Source: a virus (lineage: Duplodnaviria > Heunggongvirae > Uroviricota > Caudoviricetes). From it: a DNA stretch of 19,722 nucleotides. The first letter of the stretch is position 1. The number at the start of each line of letters is the position of its first letter. Below, piece after piece: positions 1 to 18,710 of the stretch. Location: the IMG/VR virus record IMGVR_UViG_2537562019_000014. One strand, written 5' to 3'. The notes below the pieces were generated by a model. The model had not been told where the DNA came from and did no database searches. It saw only the letters and a list, made by a program, of their open reading frames with translations. The position numbers and the translations under genes were made by a program.

Positions 1-37
1 ATTATACGCGCGTATAATGGGGAATTATGTGCTGATT
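1..37. repeat. Partial telRL (protelomerase target palindrome telO plus right flank), truncated by the window start
   Basis: Bases 1-20 ATTATACGCGCGTATAATGG are a perfect palindrome matching the recalled N15 telO core minus its first 2 bp; the following GGAATTATGTGCTGAT resembles the N15 telRL right arm; lies directly upstream of a TelN-like gene. Confidence 0.7.
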
Positions 38-200
38 TTCAGAACAAAGTCAAGGAACAAATTTTAACGTTCTGATATTGTGTTTTTATTTATTATCCGT
101 TATTGTGTTCTGTTAGTTTGTGCCTAAGTTAACGCGTTATTAGTTATCTTATTCTCAAATTGTGTTACGATAATCCGAGCGGATAATCAGGAGAGGAAAG

Positions 201-3941: not shown

Positions 3942-4267
3942 TTAACCCCACTCACCATCAGCAAACAAAGCGTTATACTCTGACAATGGTAGACGGTTGC
4001 CCTCGATGTAGAGATTCAGTTCATACTTCGTCTCCGGGTTTTCCTTGTCGGCTCGTTCCCAACGCTCAGCAGCCTCACGCGCCAATAATTCCACTGCTTT
4101 CAGATAATCCTCCGTACGGAACCAGCCAAAGATAAGGCCACGATCTGTTACAGCCCAGGCAACCTTTTTTCTTCCTCCTGGATAGCCTTAATGCGTCGAT
4201 CGCATTCATCCCGGCAAAACTGCAGCTGACGGTAATCAAGTTTGTCCAAAAATGCAGTAGTAGACAT
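3942..4267 (-). pseudogene. Hypothetical ~108-aa gene interrupted by a frameshift at an A6 tract (indel, slippage or sequencing error)
   Basis: ATG at 4267 with GGAG RBS; frame stops at 4148-4150 after 39 codons; the -1 frame is open from the A6 tract (T6 on plus, 4165-4170) to TAA at 3942-3944; one extra A would fuse both parts. Confidence 0.45.
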
Positions 4268-4271
4268 ATTT

Positions 4272-4463
4272 TTACTCCCCGTTCACCGAAAAATCACGAT
4301 AGAAACGTTTCCACATACGATAAGTCTGCGCGAGTTGTTCACCACGAAACATCGCCTTCCTGGCCTTCATGTTTTCCTTGTGAGACTTTCGATCTATGAA
4401 CCAAAACCATTGCTGGAACACACAAAGCAAGAGACACAAAGATAATATCCACTGATTACCCAT
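4272..4463 (-). CDS. Small membrane protein (63 aa) translationally coupled to repA
   Basis: ATG at 4463 overlaps the last codons of repA (TATGGGTAA); hydrophobic N-terminus WILSLCLLLCVFQQWFWFI followed by a basic tail; stop lies 4 nt before the next start. Confidence 0.45.
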   Translation of the reverse strand: MGNQWILSLCLLLCVFQQWFWFIDRKSHKENMKARKAMFRGEQLAQTYRMWKRFYRDFSVNGE

Positions 4464-7400
4464 AGAAAGCGCCCTGCTCTTCGTAGCTGCATGGGCTATT
4501 CCCGGTAATGTATTCACGTAACCGCCGCAGTTCATTGCTGGATAAGTGATCCATGAACTCTGTGAGGTACAGAGATGCAAACGTCATAGCTATGCTGGCT
4601 GATGACCATGATGACATAGTGGCCAGCTCCTCACCGGAAAGCGCACTCATCGCCCAGGACTCAGGTACAACCACTGGCAACACAGCCAAAGCCTCAGAAA
4701 TTACTGAATGAGGGGCGTTTTGAACCTGCTCGTTTGTGGATCGCGTTTTATCATCCATATATATATTGAGATCCAAATCGCGATCCATTTCGATGGCGGT
4801 CTTCTCGGCTTTACGCGTTTTCAGGGTTAGGCCATCTTTCTGACGCTGAGCAAGAATATCCAGCATAAATGCCGCTGATTCAGGCTCAACAAAACGCAAG
4901 GTTGGACGCTTATCGCCGTCTCTGCCGCGACGTTTACCTGTTTTAAGGCCAAGAGAGTCGCAAATGTTTTTAAACAACGCTTCCGGCACTTTAGGCTTCC
5001 CTTTTGGCGTCATAAAACCACCAATGTGCAGAACGTTATTCAACAGGTCACGGCGTTCGGCTGTCATGAGGTTATCTCGAGCAAATTTGAGACGCTCCTG
5101 AGTCGCCTCGCCGGTCATAGTCTCAGGGTTGATACCGCAGTCGATAAAGTACTGCCGGAGAGTTGCTGATTTAAGCGCATAGAAACCGCGCGCCCCGACT
5201 TCAACAGTAGGAGTAGCTTTTACCTTGTGATCGATTATTCCAGGGAATTTAGTTTTAAAGACATCATCAGCCTGCTCGCGAGTCATCGCGGTCACTACAA
5301 AATATTGCCACTGTCCCGCCTGACGGTATGCGTAGGTAAAATTGATGGCTGCTTCTTCCCGGTCGTAACGACGAGCTGTTACCTCATCTAAAAGCATTGT
5401 TTCATAGCGGCGAACTTTGTCTCGAGCACCATCGAAATAGAATTTCAGCGTGCCTTCTTCAACCGGTAGTTTCAGTTCGTTTTCAATATCCCAGCGGACA
5501 AGTTTTGCCTGTTCTTCAAGCGTCAGCGCGCGTTTTTTTAGCAGTTCTTCACGCTCTGATTCTTGTGGAGTTTCTGTATTGAGATGCAGATCCAGTGTCT
5601 GTTCCCACACAATATCCCGCGCTTCTTTACGCAGCTCTTTACCGATATCATTCGCAGCATAATCGGTGGCCAGCGGCGATACCTTATAACCGTCGCTGTG
5701 CATGATGCAGATCATGTTGCTGGCGTAGTCGTTACGCGCAGTCGCTTCAATAGCGGCTGCTTTAATTTTCATCCTGGTAAAGTCGGTATTGGCCACCCCC
5801 ATTGATATACGGTCGCCATCGAAAACGACATCCGTCAGTTCACCGTTCATACCTGCGGTAGCAAGCAATGCCTGGGCGAATGCTCGTTCTATTTTTTGCG
5901 GGTCAGTTTCACGTTTTGCACGAGCTTTATCAAAGCCGATAATAAATTCTTTTGCTGTACGGTCGCGGCGTAGCATTTGCACTGCGTCGCTGGGTACAAC
6001 TTCACCACAGAACATGCCGAAATGACGGTCAAAATGTTTTTGCTCAATCGACACGCCGGATGAAATAGACGGGCTATAAATCAGGCCGTCGTATTTTTTG
6101 ACCATCTTTTTCGGTTGATTGGTAAATGCTTCAACTTCTGGCTCTGGTTTGTTTTTCTGGTTTACACACAGAAATTTCTTACCAGGAAAATGCATTCTCA
6201 GGGTGGCTGTCACATCTTCTGCAAAGGTGGAGCTGTCGGTGGCCAACATGATTTTTTCGCCATCCGATACAGCTTTCACCACCTCGGTCATGATGCGATC
6301 TTTTTCTGTATAAAAAACCCGGATTGGCTCACCTGTTTCGCGGTTGCGAACATCAACAGGTAATTCAATTACGTGGATCTGCAGCCATGCCGGTAAACCT
6401 AGTTCTTCACGGCGTTTCATAGCCAGTTCAGCCAGGTCAACCAGCAGATCATTCGCATCAGCATCCACCATGATTGGGTGTTGTTCTGTTCTGGCCAGCG
6501 CGTCAATTAGCGTATTGAATACAGCCACCGGGTTTTCCATAGCCCGACCGGAAAGAACGGCACGTAGCCCTTGTGTGGCCTCGTCAAAGCCAAAATAGTC
6601 GTGCTGGCGCATCAACGGTTGCCAGCAGTTTTTAACAATCGAGTTTATGCAGATGGTCAGTTTACTGGCGTATGGAGCCATTTCCTGATAGCCAGGATCC
6701 TGATAGTGCAGGATATCGGCTTTTACACCTTTTCCTTCTGTCATCATTTCCCACAGGCCGCCAATAAGGGAGACACGGTGAGCAACAGAGATACCACGTT
6801 CTGAGCTATGCATTAACGGTCGTAACAATCCAGTAGATTTGCCGGAACCCATACCAGCACGGACGATGACTATCCCCTGTAGTGATTGCACGTACTTCAG
6901 GACATCATCGGTCATTACCGAAGTTTCAAAACGCTTATAGGTGATATGTTGAGGGCGTTTATTGGGATCAGTTATGCGTTCGCTGAAAGAGCGCGGAGCC
7001 TGGGCAATACGGCACTTTTTATTCAGGCGACGGGCAATGTGGTCTTTTACCGTAGCGCGATAGATATTTTCCAGTCCCATTTCACGCAGAACGATGCAGA
7101 ACATGTTAAATAAATCTGACGGACTGTTAGGAACCGGACAGGTTAGCATGCCAATATCCACCGCTCTCAGCAGCTCTTTGGCAAAAGTACGACGGTTATC
7201 CCGCTTAATTGTCTTCAGGCGGTTGAGCGTCAGAGATAGCAAATCAGTACCAGTTTTCAGGCGGTTTGCTGTTGCAAATAGTTGACGTGCTGTTTCACGA
7301 AGTCCACGTAGTTTGTGCAGGTCGTTGAAGTCACTGCACTCCATTTGCGGATCGTCTTCAAAAGTTGGATAGACGCAGCGGACATCGTTGAATTTCGATA

Positions 7401-8451
7401 AGATTTCATAGCCAGTCCGCAGGCCGGTATTCCCTTTTCCTTCTGTGGCAGATTTCCGGTCATTATCCAGTGCGCAGGTGATTTTTGCCGCCGGGTACAT
7501 GTTTACCAGTTGTTCCACAACATGAACCATGTTGTTAGCGGATACAGCGACAACCACAGCGTCAAAGCGTTTATCTTTTTTCGTGGCAAGCCAGATGGAT
7601 GCACCAGTAGCAAAACCTTCTGTAACAGCGATGTTTTGCGCCCCTTTCAGCTCACCGATAACAAAGCAGGCACCGACGAAATCGCCGCTGGTTACTGCGC
7701 TGGTCTGGTATTTTCCACCTTGTTTGTCGATTCGCTGCCAACCCACAATACGACCATCGTAACGACCGTCCAGGTGAGCCAGAGGGATAGCCATATACGT
7801 GGTTGGCCCCCTGCTCCATTTTGCGCTGTCGTGACTGGTCACGCGACGCACATCACACGAATTAAAAACGTCACGAATACCTTTTTTAATCGCATATGGC
7901 CATGAGCCGTCTTCTGCAGGAGCATGTTCCCACGCGCTGTGAAATGCCAGCCATCCCAGCAAACGTTCATGGTCAATTTGGTTGTTTTTCAGGTCATTAA
8001 TTCGTTTTTGTTCTTCACGGCGACGACGTGCTTCGGCCTGACGTTCTATTCTTGCCCGTTCTTCTTCCGGTTGTGCGACCACGGTCGCATTATTCCGTTG
8101 TTGCTCACGGCGATATTCAGAAAACAGGAAGGAGAAACCGCTCCATGAGCCAGCATCGCTGCCTTTATGGACGAAGTTAATGAACGGGTAATCAATCCCT
8201 TTGCTGTGTTCCAGCCGGGAGTAAATTTCTACGCGTCCTTTGAGGCTCTTCTCGAGAGCTTCTGGAGATGTTTTATTGTATGAAGAGTAACGCTCAACAC
8301 CCCCGCGAGGGTTGAGTTGGATGTTGTCGGAACAGGCAGGCCAGTTGATACCAGCCATCTGTGCCAGCTCGGTTAGTTCATCCCGTGCTGCTTCAATTAG
8401 CGAGAACGGATCGCTGCCAAAGCGATCCGCATAGAAATCGTTTAATGTCAT
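4456..8451 (-). CDS. repA: Replication protein RepA, multidomain primase-helicase
   Basis: 1331-aa ORF; Walker A motif GMGSGKST; TOPRIM-like primase region; size and position match N15 RepA (about 1324 aa) located between telN and cB. Confidence 0.85.
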   Translation of the reverse strand: MTLNDFYADRFGSDPFSLIEAARDELTELAQMAGINWPACSDNIQLNPRGGVERYSSYNKTSPEALEKSLKGRVEIYSRLEHSKGIDYPFINFVHKGSDAGSWSGFSFLFSEYRREQQRNNATVVAQPEEERARIERQAEARRRREEQKRINDLKNNQIDHERLLGWLAFHSAWEHAPAEDGSWPYAIKKGIRDVFNSCDVRRVTSHDSAKWSRGPTTYMAIPLAHLDGRYDGRIVGWQRIDKQGGKYQTSAVTSGDFVGACFVIGELKGAQNIAVTEGFATGASIWLATKKDKRFDAVVVAVSANNMVHVVEQLVNMYPAAKITCALDNDRKSATEGKGNTGLRTGYEILSKFNDVRCVYPTFEDDPQMECSDFNDLHKLRGLRETARQLFATANRLKTGTDLLSLTLNRLKTIKRDNRRTFAKELLRAVDIGMLTCPVPNSPSDLFNMFCIVLREMGLENIYRATVKDHIARRLNKKCRIAQAPRSFSERITDPNKRPQHITYKRFETSVMTDDVLKYVQSLQGIVIVRAGMGSGKSTGLLRPLMHSSERGISVAHRVSLIGGLWEMMTEGKGVKADILHYQDPGYQEMAPYASKLTICINSIVKNCWQPLMRQHDYFGFDEATQGLRAVLSGRAMENPVAVFNTLIDALARTEQHPIMVDADANDLLVDLAELAMKRREELGLPAWLQIHVIELPVDVRNRETGEPIRVFYTEKDRIMTEVVKAVSDGEKIMLATDSSTFAEDVTATLRMHFPGKKFLCVNQKNKPEPEVEAFTNQPKKMVKKYDGLIYSPSISSGVSIEQKHFDRHFGMFCGEVVPSDAVQMLRRDRTAKEFIIGFDKARAKRETDPQKIERAFAQALLATAGMNGELTDVVFDGDRISMGVANTDFTRMKIKAAAIEATARNDYASNMICIMHSDGYKVSPLATDYAANDIGKELRKEARDIVWEQTLDLHLNTETPQESEREELLKKRALTLEEQAKLVRWDIENELKLPVEEGTLKFYFDGARDKVRRYETMLLDEVTARRYDREEAAINFTYAYRQAGQWQYFVVTAMTREQADDVFKTKFPGIIDHKVKATPTVEVGARGFYALKSATLRQYFIDCGINPETMTGEATQERLKFARDNLMTAERRDLLNNVLHIGGFMTPKGKPKVPEALFKNICDSLGLKTGKRRGRDGDKRPTLRFVEPESAAFMLDILAQRQKDGLTLKTRKAEKTAIEMDRDLDLNIYMDDKTRSTNEQVQNAPHSVISEALAVLPVVVPESWAMSALSGEELATMSSWSSASIAMTFASLYLTEFMDHLSSNELRRLREYITGNSPCSYEEQGAFYG
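4737..4787. other. Candidate replication origin inside the 3' end of repA
   Basis: 9-bp inverted repeat TGGATCGCG / CGCGATCCA flanking a (TA)5 AT-rich core; three GATC sites within 50 bp; N15 ori is known to map within the 3' part of repA. Confidence 0.3.
8072..8089. repeat. SopB-type centromere-like palindrome, copy 1 (inside repA coding sequence)
   Basis: TGTGCGACCACGGTCGCA, 7-bp inverted arms with AC centre; closely resembles the F sopC SopB-binding repeat TGGGACCACGGTCCCA; one of four copies in the window. Confidence 0.55.
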
Positions 8452-8574
8452 TTTTTAGCCATTCCATGCGAATTATGTTTTTTCGGGTTGAAAAAATCCG
8501 CAGGAGCAGCCACAATAAACGCATCTTGAATTGACGGAATCCGTCGCTTTGTTGTGGCTGCTTCCTGAAAAGGA

Positions 8575-8602
8575 CCCGAGTTTGCCGACTCGGGTTTTTT
8601 TT
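8575..8602. terminator. Bidirectional intrinsic terminator between cB and repA
   Basis: CCCGAGT-TTGCCG-ACTCGGG 7-bp stem followed by T8 on the plus strand and preceded by an A-rich run (U-tract for the minus-strand transcript). Confidence 0.55.
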
Positions 8603-8696
8603 CGTCTTTTTTCTGCTGCTGTAACCTGAGTCAACCCACAGAACATATGCCCTGCATTAAACCAGATTTACAGCAAACAATAAACCCCGTATTAAG

Positions 8697-9293
8697 TCAT
8701 CTACCCTCAACCATGAATGATTTGATCGTTCCGACTATTTGGTGAACAAATTCAAGATCGCTTTTCCTGAAGATAGCGCGTTGTGAGTTTGTTCCATCCA
8801 GATAGTAATTTTCATCATCAAAACGGGCTAGGCGCTGGATAGTGATATTTCCTGCAGTATCACGAACCAGAACATCCTCGCCGGGGACCAGTTCCAGCGC
8901 AGAATCGACCAGGAGAAAATCGCCTGGCTGATAGTTTCCCTGCGTAAGATTGCTGATAGTTAACGCATACACAGTATTGCGCTGGCTGATGAATGGCAGG
9001 AATCGCTCAGTATTTGGAACCTGTCCCGGCTTCCACTCTTCATCAGGCCCACTTTCAGTTGTGCCAATAACAGGAATGCGATCAGGGTCATATTCTGTCC
9101 CATATAGCACCCAATGTACTGGCTTGCGTAAGCACTTAGCCAGGGCAATACCTATCTCCAGTGACGGCATTACGTCGCCACGTTCTAAGTTTTGGACGCC
9201 TGCTATAGAGATATCGACAGCCTCAGCAACTTCTCGCAACGTCAGCTTCATCTCTAAACGGCGTGCTTTCAGTCGTTCGCCTCGTGTTTTCAT
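8697..9293 (-). CDS. cB: CI-like prophage repressor (HTH N-terminal domain, LexA/CI-type C-terminal domain)
   Basis: 198-aa ORF divergent from a cro-like gene with operator palindromes between them; N-terminal XRE-type HTH (LTLREVAEAVDISIAGVQNLERG); position matches N15 cB. Confidence 0.8.
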   Translation of the reverse strand: MKTRGERLKARRLEMKLTLREVAEAVDISIAGVQNLERGDVMPSLEIGIALAKCLRKPVHWVLYGTEYDPDRIPVIGTTESGPDEEWKPGQVPNTERFLPFISQRNTVYALTISNLTQGNYQPGDFLLVDSALELVPGEDVLVRDTAGNITIQRLARFDDENYYLDGTNSQRAIFRKSDLEFVHQIVGTIKSFMVEGR

Positions 9294-9315
9294 ACTGTAA
9301 TCATAAATGATCTTC

Positions 9316-9357
9316 TTATAGCTGGCTATAAAATTTATTTATTATAGCTGGCTTTAA
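9316..9357. promoter_or_regulatory. Operator pair in the cB-cro divergent promoter region
   Basis: TTATAGC-TG-GCTATAA (9316-9331), a 16-bp near-palindrome, and a second imperfect copy TTATAGCTGGCTTTAA (9342-9357), 26 bp apart centre to centre. Confidence 0.5.
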
Positions 9358-9384
9358 TTATTGTTTATTGTTTATAATAACAAC

Positions 9385-9606
9385 ATGAAACCAGAAGAAC
9401 TTATTCGCCACTTTGGCAGTGTTGAAAAAGCAGCGGCAGGGGTAGGTGTAACACCCGGAGCTGTTTACCAATGGTTAACCGCTGGAGAGATTCCTTCATT
9501 GCGGCAAAGCGATATTGAAGTTCGTACTGCTTACAAGCTGAAGAGTGACTTTACAACTCGGCGGGTAAAGCAGTCGATTAAGGAGAGTCGTAAGCGTGGA
9601 GCTTGA
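9385..9606 (+). CDS. cro: Cro-like HTH regulator (73 aa from ATG 9385)
   Basis: Small HTH protein (GVTPGAVYQWLTAGEIP) divergent from cB; the ORF track begins at a TTG at 9361, ATG 9385 preferred. Confidence 0.65.
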   Translation: MKPEELIRHFGSVEKAAAGVGVTPGAVYQWLTAGEIPSLRQSDIEVRTAYKLKSDFTTRRVKQSIKESRKRGA

Positions 9607-10306
9607 GTATATACGCAGCTGCGTCTCTACGGCATTGGCTGATGTTCATTATCGCCAGCGTGGCATTCTGGAGGTCCAGCTTGAGCAGATGCGTCTCGGT
9701 AGATCAGGACGGTTTAACAATAAACCAGTCCGGTCAATCAGTGTGGGGGATGATAACTCATACGAAGTGTCCGTTCCCGCTGAGCCGGTTAGATTCCACC
9801 AGGGGAAAACATTTAAACAATCATCAATGTTGCTCACTGATATTGATTTTCAGAGCGCCAGCTGGCGCAGGGCTATTTGTCAGTTGAATAACGAGGAATC
9901 AGCCTGGCTTTATTATTGCTACGGATGCAAGCCTGACTACAACAATGATGTGATTGTTTGTCAGTGGTTATGGCTTGATTTTCTGGTTGCTCATTCGGGG
10001 GGCGGCTTTAAAAAAATGAAGGCCTCCACGAAAAAAGCCATGCGGAAATTGATTTATTACGCGGCACAGCAGGTTAAATCAGAACTTACGTGTGCTGAGG
10101 CAGTTGATGAGAGAGAACAGGACAGGCATCTGAGTTTTCTACTGAATATATCTATTGATAGCTGGAGACAAGATTATAAAGAACGCTGGCTTTTAATTAA
10201 GTCGCGATGTCTGAGCTTAAATCGAACCGCATTATTAAATGCGGCGGAGAAGCGCAGTGAAATCATCAAACGCCATCGGGCAGGAAGTGCCATTCTGCCT
10301 TTGTAA
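9596..10306 (+). CDS. 236-aa protein in the position of the N15 Q late-gene regulator; function not verifiable from sequence
   Basis: GTG start with AAGGAG RBS, overlaps the end of cro; synteny cB-cro-Q as in N15 immB; several Cys (YCYGC). Confidence 0.45.
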   Translation: MELEYIRSCVSTALADVHYRQRGILEVQLEQMRLGRSGRFNNKPVRSISVGDDNSYEVSVPAEPVRFHQGKTFKQSSMLLTDIDFQSASWRRAICQLNNEESAWLYYCYGCKPDYNNDVIVCQWLWLDFLVAHSGGGFKKMKASTKKAMRKLIYYAAQQVKSELTCAEAVDEREQDRHLSFLLNISIDSWRQDYKERWLLIKSRCLSLNRTALLNAAEKRSEIIKRHRAGSAILPL

Positions 10307-10559
10307 ACAAGTTATGTTCAGGAAACCGTCGAAGCCAGAATTAAGGTATTCGGGGGTAAGAAATGAATATGTCATCTGGTGTCCAACTTGCGGTTACAGG
10401 ACACGACCCGATAGTAATAAGCAGTCTGTAATTGCCGATTGGTATTTATCAAATCAGCCAGGTAATAAGCATATAGAAAATCTTTGGATTAAGCGTTATC
10501 TGGAAATTAGAGAGGGTGCGACCACGGTCGCACAAGAAAATGAAAATAACGCCATTTAA
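10257..10559 (+). CDS. Small putative zinc-ribbon protein (Cys pairs FCLC and CPTCG)
   Basis: GTG 10257 with GGAG RBS (alternative starts ATG 10239 or ATG 10316); overlaps the 3' end of the Q-position gene; contains centromere-like palindrome copy 2. Confidence 0.4.
   Translation: MKSSNAIGQEVPFCLCKQVMFRKPSKPELRYSGVRNEYVIWCPTCGYRTRPDSNKQSVIADWYLSNQPGNKHIENLWIKRYLEIREGATTVAQENENNAI
10516..10533. repeat. SopB-type centromere-like palindrome, copy 2
   Basis: GTGCGACCACGGTCGCAC, perfect 8-bp arms, inside the zinc-ribbon ORF. Confidence 0.55.
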
Positions 10560-10569
10560 ACAGGGGCCG

Positions 10570-10743
10570 ATGACGCATGATGAGGCAGAGCGTCTTTCAG
10601 ATACTTATCGGCGGCGTGGTAAGAAAGTTCTGGTTGTTCGTTCTGATTTTTTAGGTGATGGATATTGCGTTTATGTTCATTTACCTGAATCAGAAAGAGC
10701 ACCAAAACCATCCAGAACATATCAACAGAAGTTTTGGGCATAG
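10570..10743 (+). CDS. Hypothetical small protein (57 aa)
   Basis: ATG 11 nt after the upstream stop; no clear RBS; start uncertain (ORF track begins at 10516). Confidence 0.3.
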   Translation: MTHDEAERLSDTYRRRGKKVLVVRSDFLGDGYCVYVHLPESERAPKPSRTYQQKFWA

Positions 10744-10766
10744 ATAAACATTGAGGAGAATTATTC

Positions 10767-11366
10767 GTGACTAATCAGATAATTTACGACAGGAAACGGT
10801 CTGATGTAATGATTGACCTTGAAACAATGGGTACTAATACATGTGCTCCAATTGTTTCTATCGGGGCAGTGTTTTTTTCTCCTGAAAGTGAGGAATTAGG
10901 TGCCACTTTTTATGTACCAGTGAATCTCAGAAGCTCGATGTTAAATGGTGGTGTTGCCGATGGTGATACCATTTTATGGTGGTTGCGGCAGAGCAAGGAA
11001 GCCAGAGCCGCAATTTGTACTAATGATGCCCTTGATATTAATGATGCACTTTTTGAATTATCACACTTTATTACTTGCCATGCTTGTAATTTAAAAACAT
11101 TGAAAGTATGGGGAAATGGAGCAACGTTCGATAATGTAATTTTACGCGGCGCTTATGAGCGCGTTGGCTTATCCTGTCCGTGGGAATATTTTAATGATCA
11201 GGATGTTCGAACAATCGTTAATCTTGGTCAGTTTATTGGTTTTAATCCTAAAAAAGATATGCCATTTGATGGCGAACGACACAATGCCCTGGCTGATGCT
11301 ATTCATCAGGCTAAATATGTATCTGCAATTTTCTCCCGTCTTGTAAAAGGGCAAGGAGAATCGTAA
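10767..11366 (+). CDS. DEDDh-family (DnaQ-like) 3'-5' exonuclease
   Basis: GTG start with GAGGAG RBS; Exo I motif MIDLETMG near the N-terminus and C-terminal H-x4-D (ERHNALADA) typical of DEDDh exonucleases. Confidence 0.65.
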   Translation: MTNQIIYDRKRSDVMIDLETMGTNTCAPIVSIGAVFFSPESEELGATFYVPVNLRSSMLNGGVADGDTILWWLRQSKEARAAICTNDALDINDALFELSHFITCHACNLKTLKVWGNGATFDNVILRGAYERVGLSCPWEYFNDQDVRTIVNLGQFIGFNPKKDMPFDGERHNALADAIHQAKYVSAIFSRLVKGQGES

Positions 11367-11785
11367 TGGCAAAGGCTTTTACACCAGAACAGAGGGAAGA
11401 ACTGAATAAACAAATTGTGGAACTCGTGCGCCTGAATGGACGAGGAACGGTTAGGCAACTTGCGGATGAAACTGGTATTAGCCGGTGTGCTGTTAGTCGT
11501 TTATCAAGAGAGCTTGCTGCCAGTGGTGATTTGTATATCTCTGGCTCCGGGATATTTCTGTCTGCACAAGCACGCAAGGACTGGCAAAACGCCCGTAAAA
11601 AACTATCAAGAGTAAAGCCGAAGAAATCGGTAGTGGTTGATCCAGACCTTATCTGGTCATTACCTGACGGAGAAATACGTCGCTACGACAGGCGCCTGAA
11701 CATGATTTGTCACGATTGTCGGAAGAGCGAAGTTATGCAGCGTGTGTTGGCGTTTTATCAGGGAAATTTTCAGGAGGTGGCGTAG
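11366..11785 (+). CDS. Winged-helix/HTH-containing hypothetical protein (139 aa)
   Basis: AAGGAGAA RBS; start overlaps the upstream stop (TAATG); N-terminal HTH-like segment GTVRQLADETGISRCAVSRLSRELA. Confidence 0.6.
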   Translation: MAKAFTPEQREELNKQIVELVRLNGRGTVRQLADETGISRCAVSRLSRELAASGDLYISGSGIFLSAQARKDWQNARKKLSRVKPKKSVVVDPDLIWSLPDGEIRRYDRRLNMICHDCRKSEVMQRVLAFYQGNFQEVA

Positions 11786-12075
11786 TGAATATCGACACCA
11801 CGATAACGATCGATATGGCCCTAAATACCGGTCTGGCACTTCTCGGTTGGTTTTACATCATGTTCAGTGCGGGGAAGTGGGCGGCCTCTGTTTTTCTAAA
11901 GCAGTGGGGAAAGCGCCGCAAACAGGAAAAACGCCAGAAAGCGTTGGAGGCGTTCTATGACGCATTTGAACTTGGCCGCATTGAACCAGGTACAACAGCC
12001 AGGATAGCGACAAAAGGCGACCTGATGATAGTGATGTTCCGACAGGAGAGAGCAGAGAAAGGGGGATCAGCATGA
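11785..12075 (+). CDS. Small membrane protein (about 97 aa from GTG)
   Basis: GTG 11785 with AGGAGG RBS, overlapping the upstream stop (TAGTG); one predicted TM segment LALLGWFYIMF; the ORF track begins earlier at 11707. Confidence 0.45.
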   Translation: MNIDTTITIDMALNTGLALLGWFYIMFSAGKWAASVFLKQWGKRRKQEKRQKALEAFYDAFELGRIEPGTTARIATKGDLMIVMFRQERAEKGGSA

Positions 12076-12731
12076 AATTTTCCAAATTTTCTGAGTTGGT
12101 GAATCGTATTTTGTCCAACAACCACAGCCATCGTCGCGATATGGATGTAACAATCGTTGTTCATTCGCCTGGCAGCATTGGTTCAACACCTTCAGTTGAG
12201 GTTCAGTCAATTCACGCTGGTTTTGATTGGGATTCCGGGAAAGTGCTTATTTTCCCAACACAGCCACTGACCACGCTAACACCAGAACAGATTACTGATA
12301 TTACTGATAGTGTGCGCAAAGGTCAGTCTTGGCACGCATATCAGGAATATAAAAAGCATAAAGAGCAGTTGGAAAAATTGTCGATTGAGTTGGAATCAGC
12401 CAAAAATCACATAGCAGAACTGGAAGCCAAACCTGTAAGCCAAACTTACAAGTTAACTTTTGAGCAATGGCTGGAACAGCAGCATGACAAAATTGATGTT
12501 GATTGTGGATGTGTAAGTACAGAAATGCTTATGCACTGGATAAGGGTCGCGTATGAGGCTGGCAACTCTCCGGTAACTCCGGATGGTCATATTCAGTTTT
12601 CTGTTTCACTTCCTGCAGCATGTGGTGGAGATAAATATTTTATTGATGGTGTATTTCAACCTTTGAGATATGAGCGTGACTGTGAAAAAGCGGTTGTGGC
12701 CGCTGGCGGTGTAGTTAATTGGGTTAAGTAA
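12072..12731 (+). CDS. Hypothetical protein (219 aa), no recognisable domain
   Basis: ATG overlaps the upstream stop (ATGA); continues the coupled operon. Confidence 0.6.
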   Translation: MKFSKFSELVNRILSNNHSHRRDMDVTIVVHSPGSIGSTPSVEVQSIHAGFDWDSGKVLIFPTQPLTTLTPEQITDITDSVRKGQSWHAYQEYKKHKEQLEKLSIELESAKNHIAELEAKPVSQTYKLTFEQWLEQQHDKIDVDCGCVSTEMLMHWIRVAYEAGNSPVTPDGHIQFSVSLPAACGGDKYFIDGVFQPLRYERDCEKAVVAAGGVVNWVK

Positions 12732-12746
12732 TTTTCAGGAGGATTT

Positions 12747-13073
12747 ATGGCGCTGACAGCTGCAGAACGGCAAAGGAGACGCAGGGAACGGTTGAAGAAG
12801 GAAGGCACATCAAGACGGGACTGGATTCTGGAACCTGACGAGTTACGTATGTTGGGGGAAATTTGTGTATTGCGTAGACCAGGGCGAGTTCCATATTCAG
12901 AGAACGAAGTCATCGGACTGCTGATCAGGAAAAACTATAAGGAGTTGCAGAAACAGCTATCTACTACTTGTCCGCGATGTGGTCAAAGAATGCCTGTTTC
13001 AGAATGCATTTTTGATGGTGAAGGCTCATGCCACCTTACAACCACGAGGCTGAAACTTGCGCTCAAAGTGTGA
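12747..13073 (+). CDS. Hypothetical protein with Arg-rich N-terminus and a Cys/His cluster (108 aa)
   Basis: Strong AGGAGG RBS; N-terminus MALTAAERQRRRRERLKKEG suggests nucleic-acid binding; CPRCG...C..H near the C-terminus. Confidence 0.55.
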   Translation: MALTAAERQRRRRERLKKEGTSRRDWILEPDELRMLGEICVLRRPGRVPYSENEVIGLLIRKNYKELQKQLSTTCPRCGQRMPVSECIFDGEGSCHLTTTRLKLALKV

Positions 13074-13244
13074 CTGGTCACGGAGGGGTAAATGGACAAA
13101 AAGGCATTGCTTTTTGAAATGATACGAAAACGGAGCGAAAAGAGCTTTTCTGATGGTGGTGATGGGCTTTTGGAAGTGGTTGGGCGAGGCGCAGGAAGGG
13201 AACATAAGTATCGGACTACAAAGATATTTAACCAGTTAATCCAT

Positions 13245-13291
13245 TGAAAGCTGGCTATAAAATTTGAGTTTTACCCTGTAATTTTATACAG
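13245..13291. promoter_or_regulatory. Operator-like half-site plus LexA (SOS) box upstream of a small gene
   Basis: AGCTGGCTATAAAATTT (13245-13263) repeats the immB operator right half; CTGT-AATTTTAT-ACAG at 13276-13291 fits the LexA box consensus CTGT-N8-ACAG. Confidence 0.55.
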
Positions 13292-13315
13292 TATCAAATA
13301 ACCTTTTTTAATTAA

Positions 13316-13534
13316 ATGGTATTAGATTCAATGACTGAAGCACCTGTATCAACTCTTGAAGAACTCGGATCAAACCTAAAAGACATCGACGCCGTTTTGG
13401 ATCTGGTTAGCGTTGCTCTGGCTTCTCCAGAAGCCAGCTTGCATCTTGGCGAGATTTCACGACTTGTTAGTATGTCGCGGGAGATAGCTCAGAATTGCCA
13501 ACAAGTTATTGCTGTTGAGAGTTTACATCATTGA
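13316..13534 (+). CDS. Small acidic protein downstream of the LexA box; candidate antirepressor-type immA gene
   Basis: 72-aa ORF (alternative start ATG 13331); sits behind an SOS box and an operator-like motif; followed by a convergent hairpin. Confidence 0.4.
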   Translation: MVLDSMTEAPVSTLEELGSNLKDIDAVLDLVSVALASPEASLHLGEISRLVSMSREIAQNCQQVIAVESLHH

Positions 13535-13577
13535 TACACACCCCGCCCTTCCGGACGGGGTAGCGAAAAGGGTCTAA

Positions 13578-13865
13578 TCAATAGACGGCATTAATATTAA
13601 TCGTTGCACCGCATGCTTGGGCATATTTTGATAAAGTTTTCATGCTTGCCCCTAAAGGATTGCTTTCCAGGCGGCTGATAGCTGACGGGCGCAATCCCAT
13701 TCGTTCAGCCAGAGCTGACTTCGTTAAACCTGCTCTTTCCCTCATTTCGTATAACATTTCGACCATCTCCAGCTCTTTATCGGCCTCTTCATATCCTTTG
13801 ATGGCTTCTGGAGTGTTGAGAAGTTTTTCTTTTACTTCGTTAAACGGGATGCCTTTCGCTTTCAT
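13578..13865 (-). CDS. HTH (XRE-type) antitoxin, HigA-like
   Basis: 95-aa ORF with C-terminal HTH (LTKSALAERMGLRPSAISRLE); start overlaps the stop of the upstream toxin-like reading frame (TGATG). Confidence 0.7.
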   Translation of the reverse strand: MKAKGIPFNEVKEKLLNTPEAIKGYEEADKELEMVEMLYEMRERAGLTKSALAERMGLRPSAISRLESNPLGASMKTLSKYAQACGATININAVY

Positions 13866-14175
13866 CAGTTCATCTCCTTCAGGCGAGTTCTGGCGATTTC
13901 GATAGCCTTCACCGGTGTTTTCTGTGTCTTTTTTACAAATGCATGCAATAGATAAATTTCGTTACCAGTCGCGTAGGCGTACAGCGTTCTTGCGATGTTT
14001 TTTTCCCCTACTCGTATTCAAAAAGCCCTCCACCTATTACACGGCTATGGGGCATCTTCAGTTTGTTGCCTTCTTTCTCCAGTCGCTCAATTAATCTGGT
14101 CATGCGACCTCGCAAATCATCTGGTAGTTCAAGCAGTTCATCCAGTGCTGCAGGGTGGGTTATCACGTTAAACAT
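13865..14175 (-). pseudogene. HigB/RelE-like toxin (Gp49 family) disrupted by a 1-nt frameshift
   Basis: ATG 14175 with GGAGG RBS; frame stops at TAG 14008-14010 after ...GGGLFEYE; the -1 frame continues GEKNIARTLYAYATGNEIYLLHAFVKKTQKTP...; restoring one nt near 14014-14016 gives a contiguous ~103-aa toxin. Confidence 0.6.
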
Positions 14176-14233
14176 ATTATAGCCTCCATATCCATAAAAT
14201 ACACCAAAACAAGAAAACAGCGCAAATTAAAAA

Positions 14234-14251
14234 TTTCACTAAAAAGTGAAA
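14234..14251. promoter_or_regulatory. Palindromic operator candidate upstream of the toxin-antitoxin operon
   Basis: TTTCACT-AAAA-AGTGAAA perfect 7-bp inverted repeat, 59 bp upstream of the toxin start. Confidence 0.4.
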
Positions 14252-14340
14252 AATAACACTGGATGTGTTCGTTTGGCAGAGTTACAGTTCGTGTCATTGA
14301 GGGGCAATAACCCACTAACTATATGAATTTGGAGGATATT

Positions 14341-14562
14341 ATGAATTATCAAGGTAACGAAAAAATGCGCGACGACGTTGCGGAGATAGCTAACGAACTG
14401 TATGAGTTGTGGCAGAAGGTTGAACGTTTCGAAAAGGAATATGGTTTCAACAGTACCAACCTAGCAGACCGACTGGCTGGTCGCTTAGTTGGGACTATGG
14501 GGCCAAAACTGGCTGAGTTGAACCGCTTTATGGCTGATGTTGATTTCCAGTTTCAAGATTGA
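14341..14562 (+). CDS. Hypothetical protein (73 aa)
   Basis: ATG 14341 with GGAGG RBS and 5-nt spacer (the track start at 14323 has no RBS). Confidence 0.5.
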   Translation: MNYQGNEKMRDDVAEIANELYELWQKVERFEKEYGFNSTNLADRLAGRLVGTMGPKLAELNRFMADVDFQFQD

Positions 14563-14575
14563 TTAGAGAGGCGTT

Positions 14576-14803
14576 ATGAATATTAATGAAATTCGTGGAA
14601 ATATGACTGAAGCGGCCCTGAGTGTGGAATGTGTTATGCGTGGATACCCACGCATTTCCCTGAAAGAGTTAAGCGAAGCCTGTTTTTTGAGTCAGGCTGC
14701 CGTTGAATTTATCATCGAACAGATGATCTGTTTTGGGATTGCAAAGCGTAGCGGGTCTGGTCGATATTCTTTGACCGATGAATATAAGCAGGCAACTTTC
14801 TAA
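14576..14803 (+). CDS. Small winged-helix-like protein (75 aa)
   Basis: GAGAGG RBS; HTH-like segment ISLKELSEACFLSQAAVEFIIEQMICFGIAKRSG. Confidence 0.5.
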   Translation: MNINEIRGNMTEAALSVECVMRGYPRISLKELSEACFLSQAAVEFIIEQMICFGIAKRSGSGRYSLTDEYKQATF

Positions 14804-14806
14804 AAA

Positions 14807-14828
14807 CTGTGCGACCACGGTCGCACAG
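14807..14828. repeat. SopB-type centromere-like palindrome, copy 3 (extended to 10-bp arms)
   Basis: CTGTGCGACC-AC-GGTCGCACAG immediately after the stop of the preceding gene and upstream of the late-region hairpins. Confidence 0.55.
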
Positions 14829-14845
14829 CACAAAAACGAAAAAGC

Positions 14846-14874
14846 TTGGCAAAATGACGGTTTTTAGTTATTGT
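14846..14874 (+). promoter_or_regulatory. Candidate late promoter
   Basis: TTGGCA, 17-nt spacer, TATTGT; located upstream of a terminator and of the methylase/lysis/terminase genes, analogous to lambda PR'-tR'. Confidence 0.3.
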
Positions 14875-14911
14875 TTTGTTAAGTTGGGTTTTTTGTACCC
14901 AACAGCTAACA

Positions 14912-14935
14912 AGCCGCCTTTATGGCGGTTTTTTT
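14912..14935 (+). terminator. Intrinsic terminator (tR'-like) ahead of the late genes
   Basis: AGCCGCC-TTTAT-GGCGG stem followed by T7. Confidence 0.6.
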
Positions 14936-15070
14936 GTGCCTGAAAAGTGGGCGCAGGACAAGTTGCAGCTTGTCCTGCGGTCAACCCATGCCAGAGCTAT
15001 AGGCTGAACCTAAAGCCCACCCGCGATGCGCATCGCCGGGTTAGCTTACCCAGGCAAAAAAATAATAGCT

Positions 15071-16147
15071 ATGTTCAAAACCACTAATATTCATGGCGCG
15101 CAACTCGTTTGCGCAGATTCTCTGCAATTTATCAAAACCATCCCTGATAACTCGGTCAATTTGATTGCAACAGACCCACCATACTTCGGCGTAAAGGCTA
15201 ACGCATGGGATAACCAGTGGGATAGCGATGCTGACTTTTTGGGGTGGATTGACGAATTTTTGGCAGAATTTTGGCGGATATTGGCCCCTAATGGCAGCCT
15301 GTATATGTTTACCGGCTCTCGCCTTGCGTCAAAAATTGAATTATTAACTCGCGACCGTTTCAATGTTCTGAACCATATCATTTGGGCTAAACCCAGTGGT
15401 ATGTGGCGCGGTTGTCATAAAGAAAGTTTAAGGGCTTATTTTCCTGCTACTGAAAGAATATTATTTGCAGAGCATTACGGCGCGTCAGGTTATGCGAAAG
15501 GTCAGTCAGGTTATGCTTCAAAATGTGCAGATTTAAGAAAAAATATTTTTTCTCCACTAATTGATGCTTTTTCGCTGGCTCGCCGTCAGTTAGATATATC
15601 AGCCGCAGACATTAATTCAGCGACAGGAAAGCAGATGTGTTCACACTGGTTTTCTTATTCGCAGTGGCGGCTTCCATCATTAATTGATTTTAATAAACTA
15701 TGCGAATTATTTCGCAGGAAGGCAGATTCACTCGGTGTCCAGTGTCCATATCCTTTTAATGTTGATTATTCAGAACATGAAAAGCGTTATAGCGATCTGA
15801 AATTACATTATGAGGAAGTAAAGAAGCAGTATGATGATTTGAAGGTGCAGTATGAAAATTTACGCCGTCCATTTCATGTTACTGCTGATGTACCTTATAC
15901 CGATGTATGGGAGTTTCCTCCTGTGCAATATTATCCTGGCAAGCACCCATGTGAAAAACCTGCAGCGATGATGGAACATATTATAAAGAGTAGTTCACGC
16001 CCCGGAGATATCGTTGCCGATTTCTTTATGGGATCAGGCTCAACTATTAAAGCTGCGCTGAAGTTAGGACGTCAGGCAATAGGTATTGAGATTGAGAGCG
16101 AACGTTATCTTCAGACAGTTGATGAAGTGAAAAAGTTATTTGAGTAA
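15071..16147 (+). CDS. DNA methyltransferase (N6-adenine/N4-cytosine class), no cognate restriction enzyme seen
   Basis: DPPY catalytic motif near the N-terminus (LIATDPPYFG) and AdoMet-binding FxGxG (FFMGSGST) near the C-terminus; ATG 15071 preferred over 15026, which lies inside a palindrome. Confidence 0.8.
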   Translation: MFKTTNIHGAQLVCADSLQFIKTIPDNSVNLIATDPPYFGVKANAWDNQWDSDADFLGWIDEFLAEFWRILAPNGSLYMFTGSRLASKIELLTRDRFNVLNHIIWAKPSGMWRGCHKESLRAYFPATERILFAEHYGASGYAKGQSGYASKCADLRKNIFSPLIDAFSLARRQLDISAADINSATGKQMCSHWFSYSQWRLPSLIDFNKLCELFRRKADSLGVQCPYPFNVDYSEHEKRYSDLKLHYEEVKKQYDDLKVQYENLRRPFHVTADVPYTDVWEFPPVQYYPGKHPCEKPAAMMEHIIKSSSRPGDIVADFFMGSGSTIKAALKLGRQAIGIEIESERYLQTVDEVKKLFE

Positions 16148-16242
16148 CTGGAGAATATATTCCCCTGCCGTTTTTGGTAGGGGTTATTTTTGCCATATAG
16201 TTTCCAAGCCGAAACCTCAGCAACTATTGCGAGGTAAGAGAT

Positions 16243-16515
16243 ATGAAGATGGATGAACGATACAGCAGTGCATCTTATGGTAGCGCTGGTCTTGCTGCGT
16301 TCTTTGCCAGCCTGTCATTGCAGGATTGGGGCTTCATTATCGGTGTCGCGTTCAGCATTATCCTCGGTGTGCTTACATACCGGCTCAATAAACGCGAGCA
16401 GATGAAGCGCACGAAGATATTGCAGGACATATTGGATAAAACTGATGCCAATAATATTTCTGCCACGGCGATGGTTATTGGTGAATTGGGAAAGAGAGCA
16501 CCGAAGGAAATATGA
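16243..16515 (+). CDS. Holin, phage-21 S-type pinholin-like
   Basis: 90 aa with two hydrophobic segments; pattern [10 protein letters not shown]...[12 protein letters not shown] resembles the S21 pinholin; directly precedes a SAR endolysin. Confidence 0.6.
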
Positions 16516-17012
16516 TGCAGTCATCATTACGCAAAGCTGTCGCAACTGCTATTGGTGGCGGGGCTATTGCCATAGCATCTGTGCTCATCTCTGGTCCGAG
16601 CGGCAACGATGGTCTGGAAGGTGTGAAATATAACCCCTACAAAGACATCGTTGGTGTATGGACTGTATGTTACGGGCATACAGGAAAAGACATTATGCTC
16701 GGTAAAACGTATACCGAAGCAGAATGCAAAGCTCTCCTGAATAAAGACCTTGCTACTGTCGCCATACAAATTAACCCGTACATCAAAGTCGATATACCGG
16801 AAACAACGCGCGGTGCTCTTTACTCGTTCGTTTACAACGTGGGTGCAGGCAATTTCAGAACATCGACACTTCTTCGCAAAATCAACCAGGGCGATATCAA
16901 AGGTGCATGTGATCAACTACGTCGCTGGACATATGCTGGCGGTAAGCAATGGAAAGGCCTGATGACTCGTCGTGAGATTGAGCGTGAAGTCTGTTTGTGG
17001 GGGCAACAATGA
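16512..17012 (+). CDS. SAR endolysin (GH24 lysozyme, phage-21 R-like)
   Basis: N-terminal Gly/Ala-rich signal-anchor-release segment [20 protein letters not shown], then a lysozyme domain; start overlaps the holin stop. Confidence 0.85.
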
Positions 17013-17476
17013 GCAGAGTAACCGCAATTATCTCCGCTCTGGTTATCTGCATCATCGTCTGCCTGTCGTGGGCGGTCAATCATTACCGTGATAACGCCAT
17101 CGTCTACAAAGAACAGCGAGATAAAAAAGTCAGTGAGCTGAAGCAGGCGACCGCCACCATTACTGACATGCAGCAGCGCCAGCGTTCTGCTGATGCACTC
17201 GATGCTAAATACACGAAGGAGTTAGCTTATGCGAAAGCTGAAAATGATGCTCTTCGGCGCAAGCTTGATAATGGTGGTCGGGTGTTCGTCAAAGGAAAAT
17301 GCCCTGTGCCATCCTCAGCCGAAACCTCCAGCGCCTCCGGCATGGGCAATGATGCCACCGTCGAACTCTCTCCAGTTGCTGGACGAAACGTTCTCGGTAT
17401 CCGGGACGGAATTATCCGCGACCAAACAGCACTGAGAACGCTTCAGGAATACATCGGGACGCAATGCCTTCGATGA
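17009..17476 (+). CDS. Rz: Rz-like inner-membrane spanin
   Basis: ATG overlaps the endolysin stop (ATGA); N-terminal TM segment then coiled-coil-like region; contains an embedded +1-frame lipoprotein gene. Confidence 0.75.
17229..17435 (+). CDS. Rz1: Rz1-like outer-membrane lipoprotein spanin, embedded in Rz
   Basis: Entirely within Rz in another frame; lipobox VVGC; proline-rich mature region [11 protein letters not shown], similar to lambda Rz1. Confidence 0.7.
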
Positions 17477-18700: not shown

Positions 18701-18710
18701 GGAATGAATA

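Follow-up and report, generated by a model that had tools for sequence, protein, structure and literature searches.

Organisation of the module

The DNA analysed here, a stretch of 19,722 bp referred to as the window, carries on its minus strand a toxin gene followed by an antitoxin gene. The toxin ORF opens at the ATG at 14175, and its 5′ part (14008..14175, minus strand) is a 55-aa ORF that reads MFNVITHPAALDELLELPDDLRGRMTRLIERLEKEGNKLKMPHSRVIGGGLFE, then Tyr-Glu and a TAG at 14010-14008, the first 53 residues being native. This stub, MFNV...RVIGGGLFE-YE-stop, is deposited as ENA71219.1. The 3′ remainder of the gene (13865..14016, minus strand) comprises the last 2 nt of codon 54, codons 55-103 and a TGA at 13867-13865. 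It is open from 14016 in another frame, (L)RVGEKNIARTLYAYATGNEIYLLHAFVKKTQKTPVKAIEIARTRLKEMN-stop, and is out of frame with the start codon. A tblastn search with the intact toxin was split accordingly, residues 1-60 matching in frame -1 and residues 52-103 in frame -3. A Shine-Dalgarno sequence for the toxin, GGAGG (14183..14187, minus strand), is invariant in N15, phiKO2 and KpLi5.

The antitoxin gene (13578..13865, minus strand) is intact and encodes a 95-aa protein of the XRE/HTH_3 type (47.7 bits against HTH_3), an orthologue of N15 gp48 (Ata/HigA-like). Its product is 100% identical to WP_001386918.1, and the exact sequence is found on at least 1000 contigs. The toxin TGA and the antitoxin ATG overlap by 1 nt, at base 13865 (TGATG). 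The order of the operon is thus reversed, the toxin coming first and the XRE-HTH antitoxin second with overlapping stop and start codons, as is known for modules with a Gp49 domain (PMC2701414, PMC5906591). The sequence GAAGGAG, read as a Shine-Dalgarno site 8 nt upstream of the antitoxin ATG (13874..13880, minus strand), would permit translation of the antitoxin uncoupled from the toxin ORF.

When the frame is repaired, the toxin matches the Pfam family Gp49 (PF05973) with 101.3 bits (cut-off 23.9) over profile positions 1-90. The deposited stub scores 30.1 bits and covers positions 1-42 of 90 only. No NCBIfam model matched the toxin. An uninterrupted ORF of ~100 aa with the C-terminal ELR and HxFxKxTQKTP motifs is not present in the deposited allele, and as written the toxin gene is a pseudogene of the Gp49 family. 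The nearest solved structures are those of the HigBA system of S. pneumoniae (6AF3/6AF4; E = 5.5e-5) and HigB1 of M. tuberculosis (7AWK, 7NBU; E = 0.04). The HigB toxins of 6AF3 and 7AWK share with the present family the ELR and LLHxFxKxTQKTP motifs, and the solved systems also have XRE-HTH partner antitoxins (matches to 6af3_B and 7ewc). They differ in being distant, with weak similarity over ~80 residues, and in being chromosomal rather than carried by a phage-plasmid. As the shared motifs lie at or beyond the break, the 55-aa stub, which lacks the C-terminal half that bears them, should be inactive, i.e. a null toxin.

The lesion in the toxin gene

The frame is lost in codon 54, just past the GGGLFE motif, and TAG follows two codons on. 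The deletion junction is at 14016..14017, where one base is missing (C on the minus strand, G on the plus strand) outside any homopolymer. In alignment A1 all five relatives read GAA-CTA-CGA where the window reads GAATACGA; the C of Leu54 is absent, turning CTA into TA. Comparisons over the whole window showed the missing base to be present in every relative.

A second private change lies 13 nt downstream of the deletion. At 14003 the plus strand has T where all relatives have A, which on the minus strand is GAT>GAA and replaces Asp58 by Glu (D58E); the sequence ATAAAAA thereby becomes a run of seven A. Asp58 is invariant as far as N15, phiKO2 and KpLi5. Apart from D58E, the 49 toxin codons downstream of the break are wild type. 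The lesion-bearing allele within 13990-14030 reads GAATACGAGTAGGGGAAAAAAAC and the wild-type allele at 14003-14017 reads GAACTACGAGTAGGGGATAAAAAC; the pairs of lesion and alternative alleles are GAATACG against GAACTACG and GGGGAAAAAAAC against GGGGATAAAAAC.

A templated mutation or gene conversion was considered as the source of the two changes and rejected: no second copy of the mutated 26-mer exists in the window with up to 3 mismatches allowed, and local folding revealed no hairpin or quasi-palindrome involving either changed site.

It could also be imagined that a full-length toxin is made from the interrupted gene by programmed ribosomal frameshifting or another form of recoding. A T5 tract does lie just upstream of the break, and this is all that speaks for such a mechanism. 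A -1 slip at the tract would meet a TGA at once in the target frame, and the sole stretch in which a shift could rescue the protein (AATACGAG, between the TGA and the TAG) has no slippery sequence. No stable local structure was found, and the toxin is encoded in a single frame in all relatives. Recoding can virtually be dismissed.

These comparisons bear on most of a preliminary description of this DNA, which had been made from the sequence alone. It had assigned the gene to a HigB/Gp49-type toxin, attributed the loss of frame after GGGLFE to a single missing base and found the antitoxin intact at 13578-13865, and all of this was borne out. Its repair by insertion of 1 nt to give Leu was correct, the relatives having CTA at codon 54. 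It had called the repaired protein a typical family sequence, and this holds for the Leu residue; it does not hold for VGEKNI, which is VGDKNI in every relative, D58E having been overlooked. The alignment with intact orthologues that it had proposed confirmed the missing base and brought the second private change to light.

The region upstream of the toxin

An inverted repeat, TTTCACT-TTTT-AGTGAAA (14234..14251), lies 59-76 nt upstream of the toxin ATG and is followed on the minus strand by T5. It was previously described as a perfect palindromic operator. The repeat is indeed intact and its 7-nt arms are perfect; the TTTT spacer (7+4+7) means that it is not strictly a palindrome. It is kept in N15, in phiKO2 with one change in the spacer and in KpLi5 with one change in an arm, and the intergenic region around it shows a mean column identity of 83%. 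This conservation supports a function. With its flanks the repeat folds at -10.8 kcal/mol (z = -4.75), and the equivalent site in the N15 record is annotated as a stem_loop, a putative rho-independent terminator.

Between the repeat and the toxin Shine-Dalgarno sequence a weak sigma-70-like promoter candidate, TTGCGC-18 nt-TATTTT (14196..14225, minus strand), was picked out by eye. The aligned N15 sequence is TTGTGT-17-TATATT. A consensus promoter scan from the inverted repeat to the toxin start gave nothing above threshold, and the hexamers may be taken as a putative promoter. The inverted repeat lies upstream of these, the only promoter-like hexamers, and bears the label of putative terminator in N15; candidate antitoxin operator is a reasonable description of it.

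Just upstream of the repeat, between the gp50 homologue and the toxin, is a non-coding block at 14258-14300, CACGAACTGTAACTCTG...ACATCCAG. It has hardly changed between the E. coli plasmids and N15, phiKO2 and KpLi5 and, judged by eye in alignment A2, is better conserved than the remaining sequence of this intergenic region.

Relationship to the module of N15

The locus is the gp49-gp48 toxin-antitoxin (addiction) module, of the Tad-Ata type, of an N15-like phage-plasmid. Over its full 103 aa the intact toxin allele has 92.2% identity to N15 gp49; its identity to Gp49 of phiKO2 is 91.3%. At 95 aa, N15 gp48 and the antitoxin are equal in length, and their codons show 42 synonymous and 13 nonsynonymous differences. 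Also common to the two loci are the toxin-first order, the stop/start overlap, the upstream inverted repeat and the gp47-gp51 neighbourhood, the neighbours of the module in the window being homologues of gp47, gp50 and gp51. The one difference of note is that, in the deposited contig alone, the toxin is interrupted at codon 54 and carries D58E.

N15 gp49 is the namesake of the Pfam family Gp49, and Makarova et al. 2009 (PMC2701414) give it as their example of the Tad/COG4679/DUF891 family. According to the citations of Dziewit et al. 2007 in PMC2701414 and PMC5906591, N15 has a stabilising toxin-antitoxin system of the tad-ata type that was demonstrated experimentally.

Closer still are the ~46-kb plasmids of E. 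coli, Shigella and E. albertii, and the phages YDC107_1 and PhiR46_1, that encode WP_001495871.1 and WP_001386918.1. Their 771-bp module is 93.5-99.7% identical in DNA sequence to that of the window. They differ from it in that all have an uninterrupted 103-aa toxin, to which the toxin of the window is identical save for its two private changes.

The replicon

The whole 19,722-bp window is the contig APXB01000119.1 of a draft genome of 2013 (GCA_000356365.2, E. coli 179550). E. coli 179550 is a CS7-expressing ETEC isolate that features in a paper on ETEC phages (PMC6301781). The contig is ~97% identical to ~45 plasmids of E. coli, Shigella and E. albertii (~46 kb) and to the phages YDC107_1, which belongs to the genus Ravinvirus, and PhiR46_1. 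Its genes include those for a protelomerase, a 1331-aa RepA, a repressor (cB), cro-like and Q proteins, a DNA methyltransferase, lysis proteins and the small subunit of terminase. The window is thus the left arm of an N15-like linear phage-plasmid of the Ravinvirus type. N15 itself is likewise a linear phage-plasmid with protelomerase and RepA, and its DNA around the toxin module is only ~75% identical to that of the window.

Several complete plasmid records begin at window positions 20-60, directly upstream of the protelomerase gene, and for this reason the left end of the contig (1-60) probably lies at the plasmid's hairpin telomere. The protelomerase gene itself (201-2099) contains at 1883-1894 an in-frame tract of GAGGAA-type repeats whose length varies among relatives: in pairwise comparisons the window has 12 nt more than LT906558, 6 nt more than CP061364 and 12 nt less than LR883007. 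The tract is a variable acidic repeat within the telomere resolvase. In the closest complete plasmid, NZ_LR883007.1, the protelomerase region (201-2376) differs from the window by at least five single-base indels, and that stretch has no annotated intact protelomerase CDS; either the record contains errors or the gene is a pseudogene there.

Two further genes differ between the window and its relatives or their annotation. A gene for a 219-aa protein (12072-12731) has, relative to LR883007 and CP061364, a 15-nt in-frame deletion at ~12100 between direct repeats (TGAATCGTAT). The exact 219-aa protein served as a marker for the sibling group; the index of the protein collection lists it in 27 blocks, of which 24 contigs were read. 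The DNA methyltransferase gene (15026-16147) encodes 373 aa here and in the Logan, ENA and JGI calls, and 358 aa (start at 15071) in the RefSeq annotation of relatives, making its start codon ambiguous.

Distribution of the interrupted allele

An exact-protein look-up placed the 55-aa stub on 1 contig and the intact 103-aa toxin on at least 1000. A 28-mer spanning the lesion had no matches in the GTDB representative genomes or in IMG/VR, and the repaired toxin with Glu58 was absent from a collection of 15 billion proteins. The intact toxin is annotated in all of the ~45 complete plasmid and phage records.

Two neighbouring proteins (the 219-aa protein and the 373-aa methyltransferase) led to sibling contigs in NCBI, ENA, JGI and Logan that have at least 99.8% identity to the window, similar places being collapsed. 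All 18 are wild type at both sites and carry the 103-aa Gp49 gene. Compared with AQFH01000007.1 over 3986-17455 (about 13.5-13.7 kb), the window differs at 3 sites only: the two toxin changes and the length of a homopolymer at 4164-4169. Both the identity of the module and the confinement of the lesion to this one contig can be regarded as practically certain.

A single substitution was also seen at 18709, 2 nt upstream of the start codon of the terminase small subunit (18711), where the window has T and all seven siblings that cover the site have C.

Codon comparisons show how the toxin evolves elsewhere. E. coli lineages differ from one another by 16-17 synonymous and 0 nonsynonymous codon changes; the corresponding counts relative to N15 are 41 and 8. 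By this measure purifying selection on the toxin is strong in the family, and the normal state is therefore that of a functional toxin. The lesion, for its part, has no evolutionary depth, since outside it the replicon is all but identical to plasmids in which the toxin is intact; if real, it would be very recent.

The preliminary description had taken the locus to fit toxin decay, with the antitoxin retained as a regulator or anti-addiction factor. Such an evolved state, in which selection would maintain the antitoxin as a transcriptional regulator or as a defence against the addiction modules of related plasmids, could be read from the integrity of the antitoxin ORF, its Shine-Dalgarno sequence and the upstream inverted repeat, and from nothing else. 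The distribution of the lesion contradicts it. The lesion is a singleton among the at least 1000 occurrences and is found in none of the 18 near-identical siblings, and no inheritance of the toxin-less state along a lineage was seen with the stub, with the 28-mer in the two collections or among the siblings. The remainder of the toxin shows no further decay beyond the single lesion, the 49 downstream codons being unaltered except for D58E. As the window is otherwise essentially identical to its siblings, the intact antitoxin carries no signal of selection: it has had no time to decay, and its integrity is therefore not evidence of selective retention. The module has acquired no substitutions since the split from the siblings beyond the two private toxin changes, and hence gives no indication of selection on the antitoxin either way. 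An evolved retention of the antitoxin is thus very improbable. As written, the locus resembles the orphan-antitoxin or anti-addiction concept in having an intact antitoxin beside a dead toxin. It differs in lacking both persistence in a lineage and any sign of selection, and does not qualify as a case of it.

Error or mutation

The remaining question is whether the lesion belongs to the plasmid or to the draft sequence. The two private changes are 13 nt apart, and if they were independent the chance of their falling so close within 13.7 kb would be ~0.002; they are therefore to be treated as one event. A deletion combined with a nearby substitution is an uncommon class of mutation in vivo.

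The quality of the contig was assessed by a survey for split genes, using tblastn with ~90 annotated proteins from three relatives. Only 2 of ~30 genes in the window are split, ~28 being intact, the gene for the 1331-aa RepA among them. The second split gene results from the homopolymer at 4164-4169, which is T6 on the plus strand (A6 on the minus strand) where most relatives have 7. The A6 run divides a hypothetical gene of 108 aa (WP_001555405-like) into minus-strand ORFs at 4148-4267 and 3942-4094. The independent Logan assembly of run SRR446711, whose sequence matches the window with 100.000% identity over 8946 nt, has this allele too, as do two divergent runs of 2023. The A6/A7 difference is thus a real and apparently recurrent length polymorphism.

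Among 2012-era runs the A6 allele is found in SRR446711 alone, and among NCBI contigs in APXB01000119.1 alone. For this reason SRR446711 is probably the read set of strain 179550 itself, the alternative being a clonal sibling. The 55-aa stub occurs on no read-assembly contig in the collection, though the gene caller used there reports ORFs as short as 32-39 aa; the toxin state in SRR446711 is judged solely from this absence of the stub protein from the index.

A generally poor assembly was considered and rejected as an explanation, only two genes in the window being split and the other split being reproduced in read assemblies. Consensus errors must therefore be rare in the contig, and an error at the toxin would be an isolated one. 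The deleted base also lies outside a homopolymer and hence is not at a classic 454 or nanopore error site.

Such accuracy also speaks for the opposite explanation, a genuine and very recent null mutation that arose as one complex event in the plasmid of 179550, in the patient or in culture, and that might in one version coexist with wild-type plasmid copies in a mixed population. Elsewhere the contig is accurate, the second frameshift having been confirmed by an independent read assembly, and the position of the deletion outside a homopolymer is in keeping with a real event. The ordinary substitution at 18709, found in no sibling that covers the site, suggests some real divergence of this plasmid. 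Toxin genes are commonly hit by real loss-of-function mutations, and the antitoxin has a GGAG site of its own 8 nt upstream of its ATG. Set against this, the stub is missing from all read-based assemblies, including that of the probable read set of the strain. The combination of a deletion with a substitution 13 nt away would belong to the rare class of mutation noted above, no nearby template or quasi-palindrome accounts for it, and the toxin is strongly purified by selection everywhere else. A genuine mutation is therefore possible, if somewhat doubtful.

Since the two private changes are clustered and the stub is absent from the read assemblies, it seems more probable that the toxin lesion arose as an error in the consensus or assembly of the 2013 draft than that it is a biological state. 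A sequencing error had been raised in the preliminary description as a caveat, and with the stub missing from every independent read assembly it is now the favoured explanation.

Implications

By analogy with the family, the first gene of the module would encode a Gp49/Tad toxin, a RelE/HigB-like enzyme that cleaves mRNA, an activity established for the family. The second, overlapping gene would encode an XRE-HTH antitoxin (Ata/HigA-like) that binds the toxin and should also act as repressor of the operon. A cell without the plasmid would then lose the labile antitoxin and be stopped by the toxin. The deposited allele would give a 55-aa stub as a null toxin, with the antitoxin translatable from its own GGAG site.

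If the lesion is an error, as seems probable, the cell would carry a normal, functional module. If it is real, it would be a single, very recent complex mutation in the isolate and not an evolved orphan-antitoxin arrangement; the plasmid would have lost post-segregational killing, and production of Ata from its own ribosome-binding site would continue. It is unlikely that a real lesion has left 179550 with a 'disarmed', toxin-null phage-plasmid, possibly beside wild-type copies, whose Ata guards the host against killing by N15-type plasmids.

The module and the type of element are already known, and the lesion is either an artefact or a mutation of one isolate; there is nothing new in kind. 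The significance of the locus is small, it being an orthologue of N15 gp49/gp48, and toxin frameshifts in single genomes are commonplace. It does provide a lesson in method: an intact antitoxin beside a broken toxin is no evidence of retention when the replicon is almost identical to relatives with an intact toxin. Were the lesion real, it would mean merely that one clinical ETEC isolate has an N15-like phage-plasmid minus its killing function. Should the unlikely reading of a disarmed plasmid prove true, the locus would capture, in nature, the first step in the conversion of an addiction module into an anti-addiction module.
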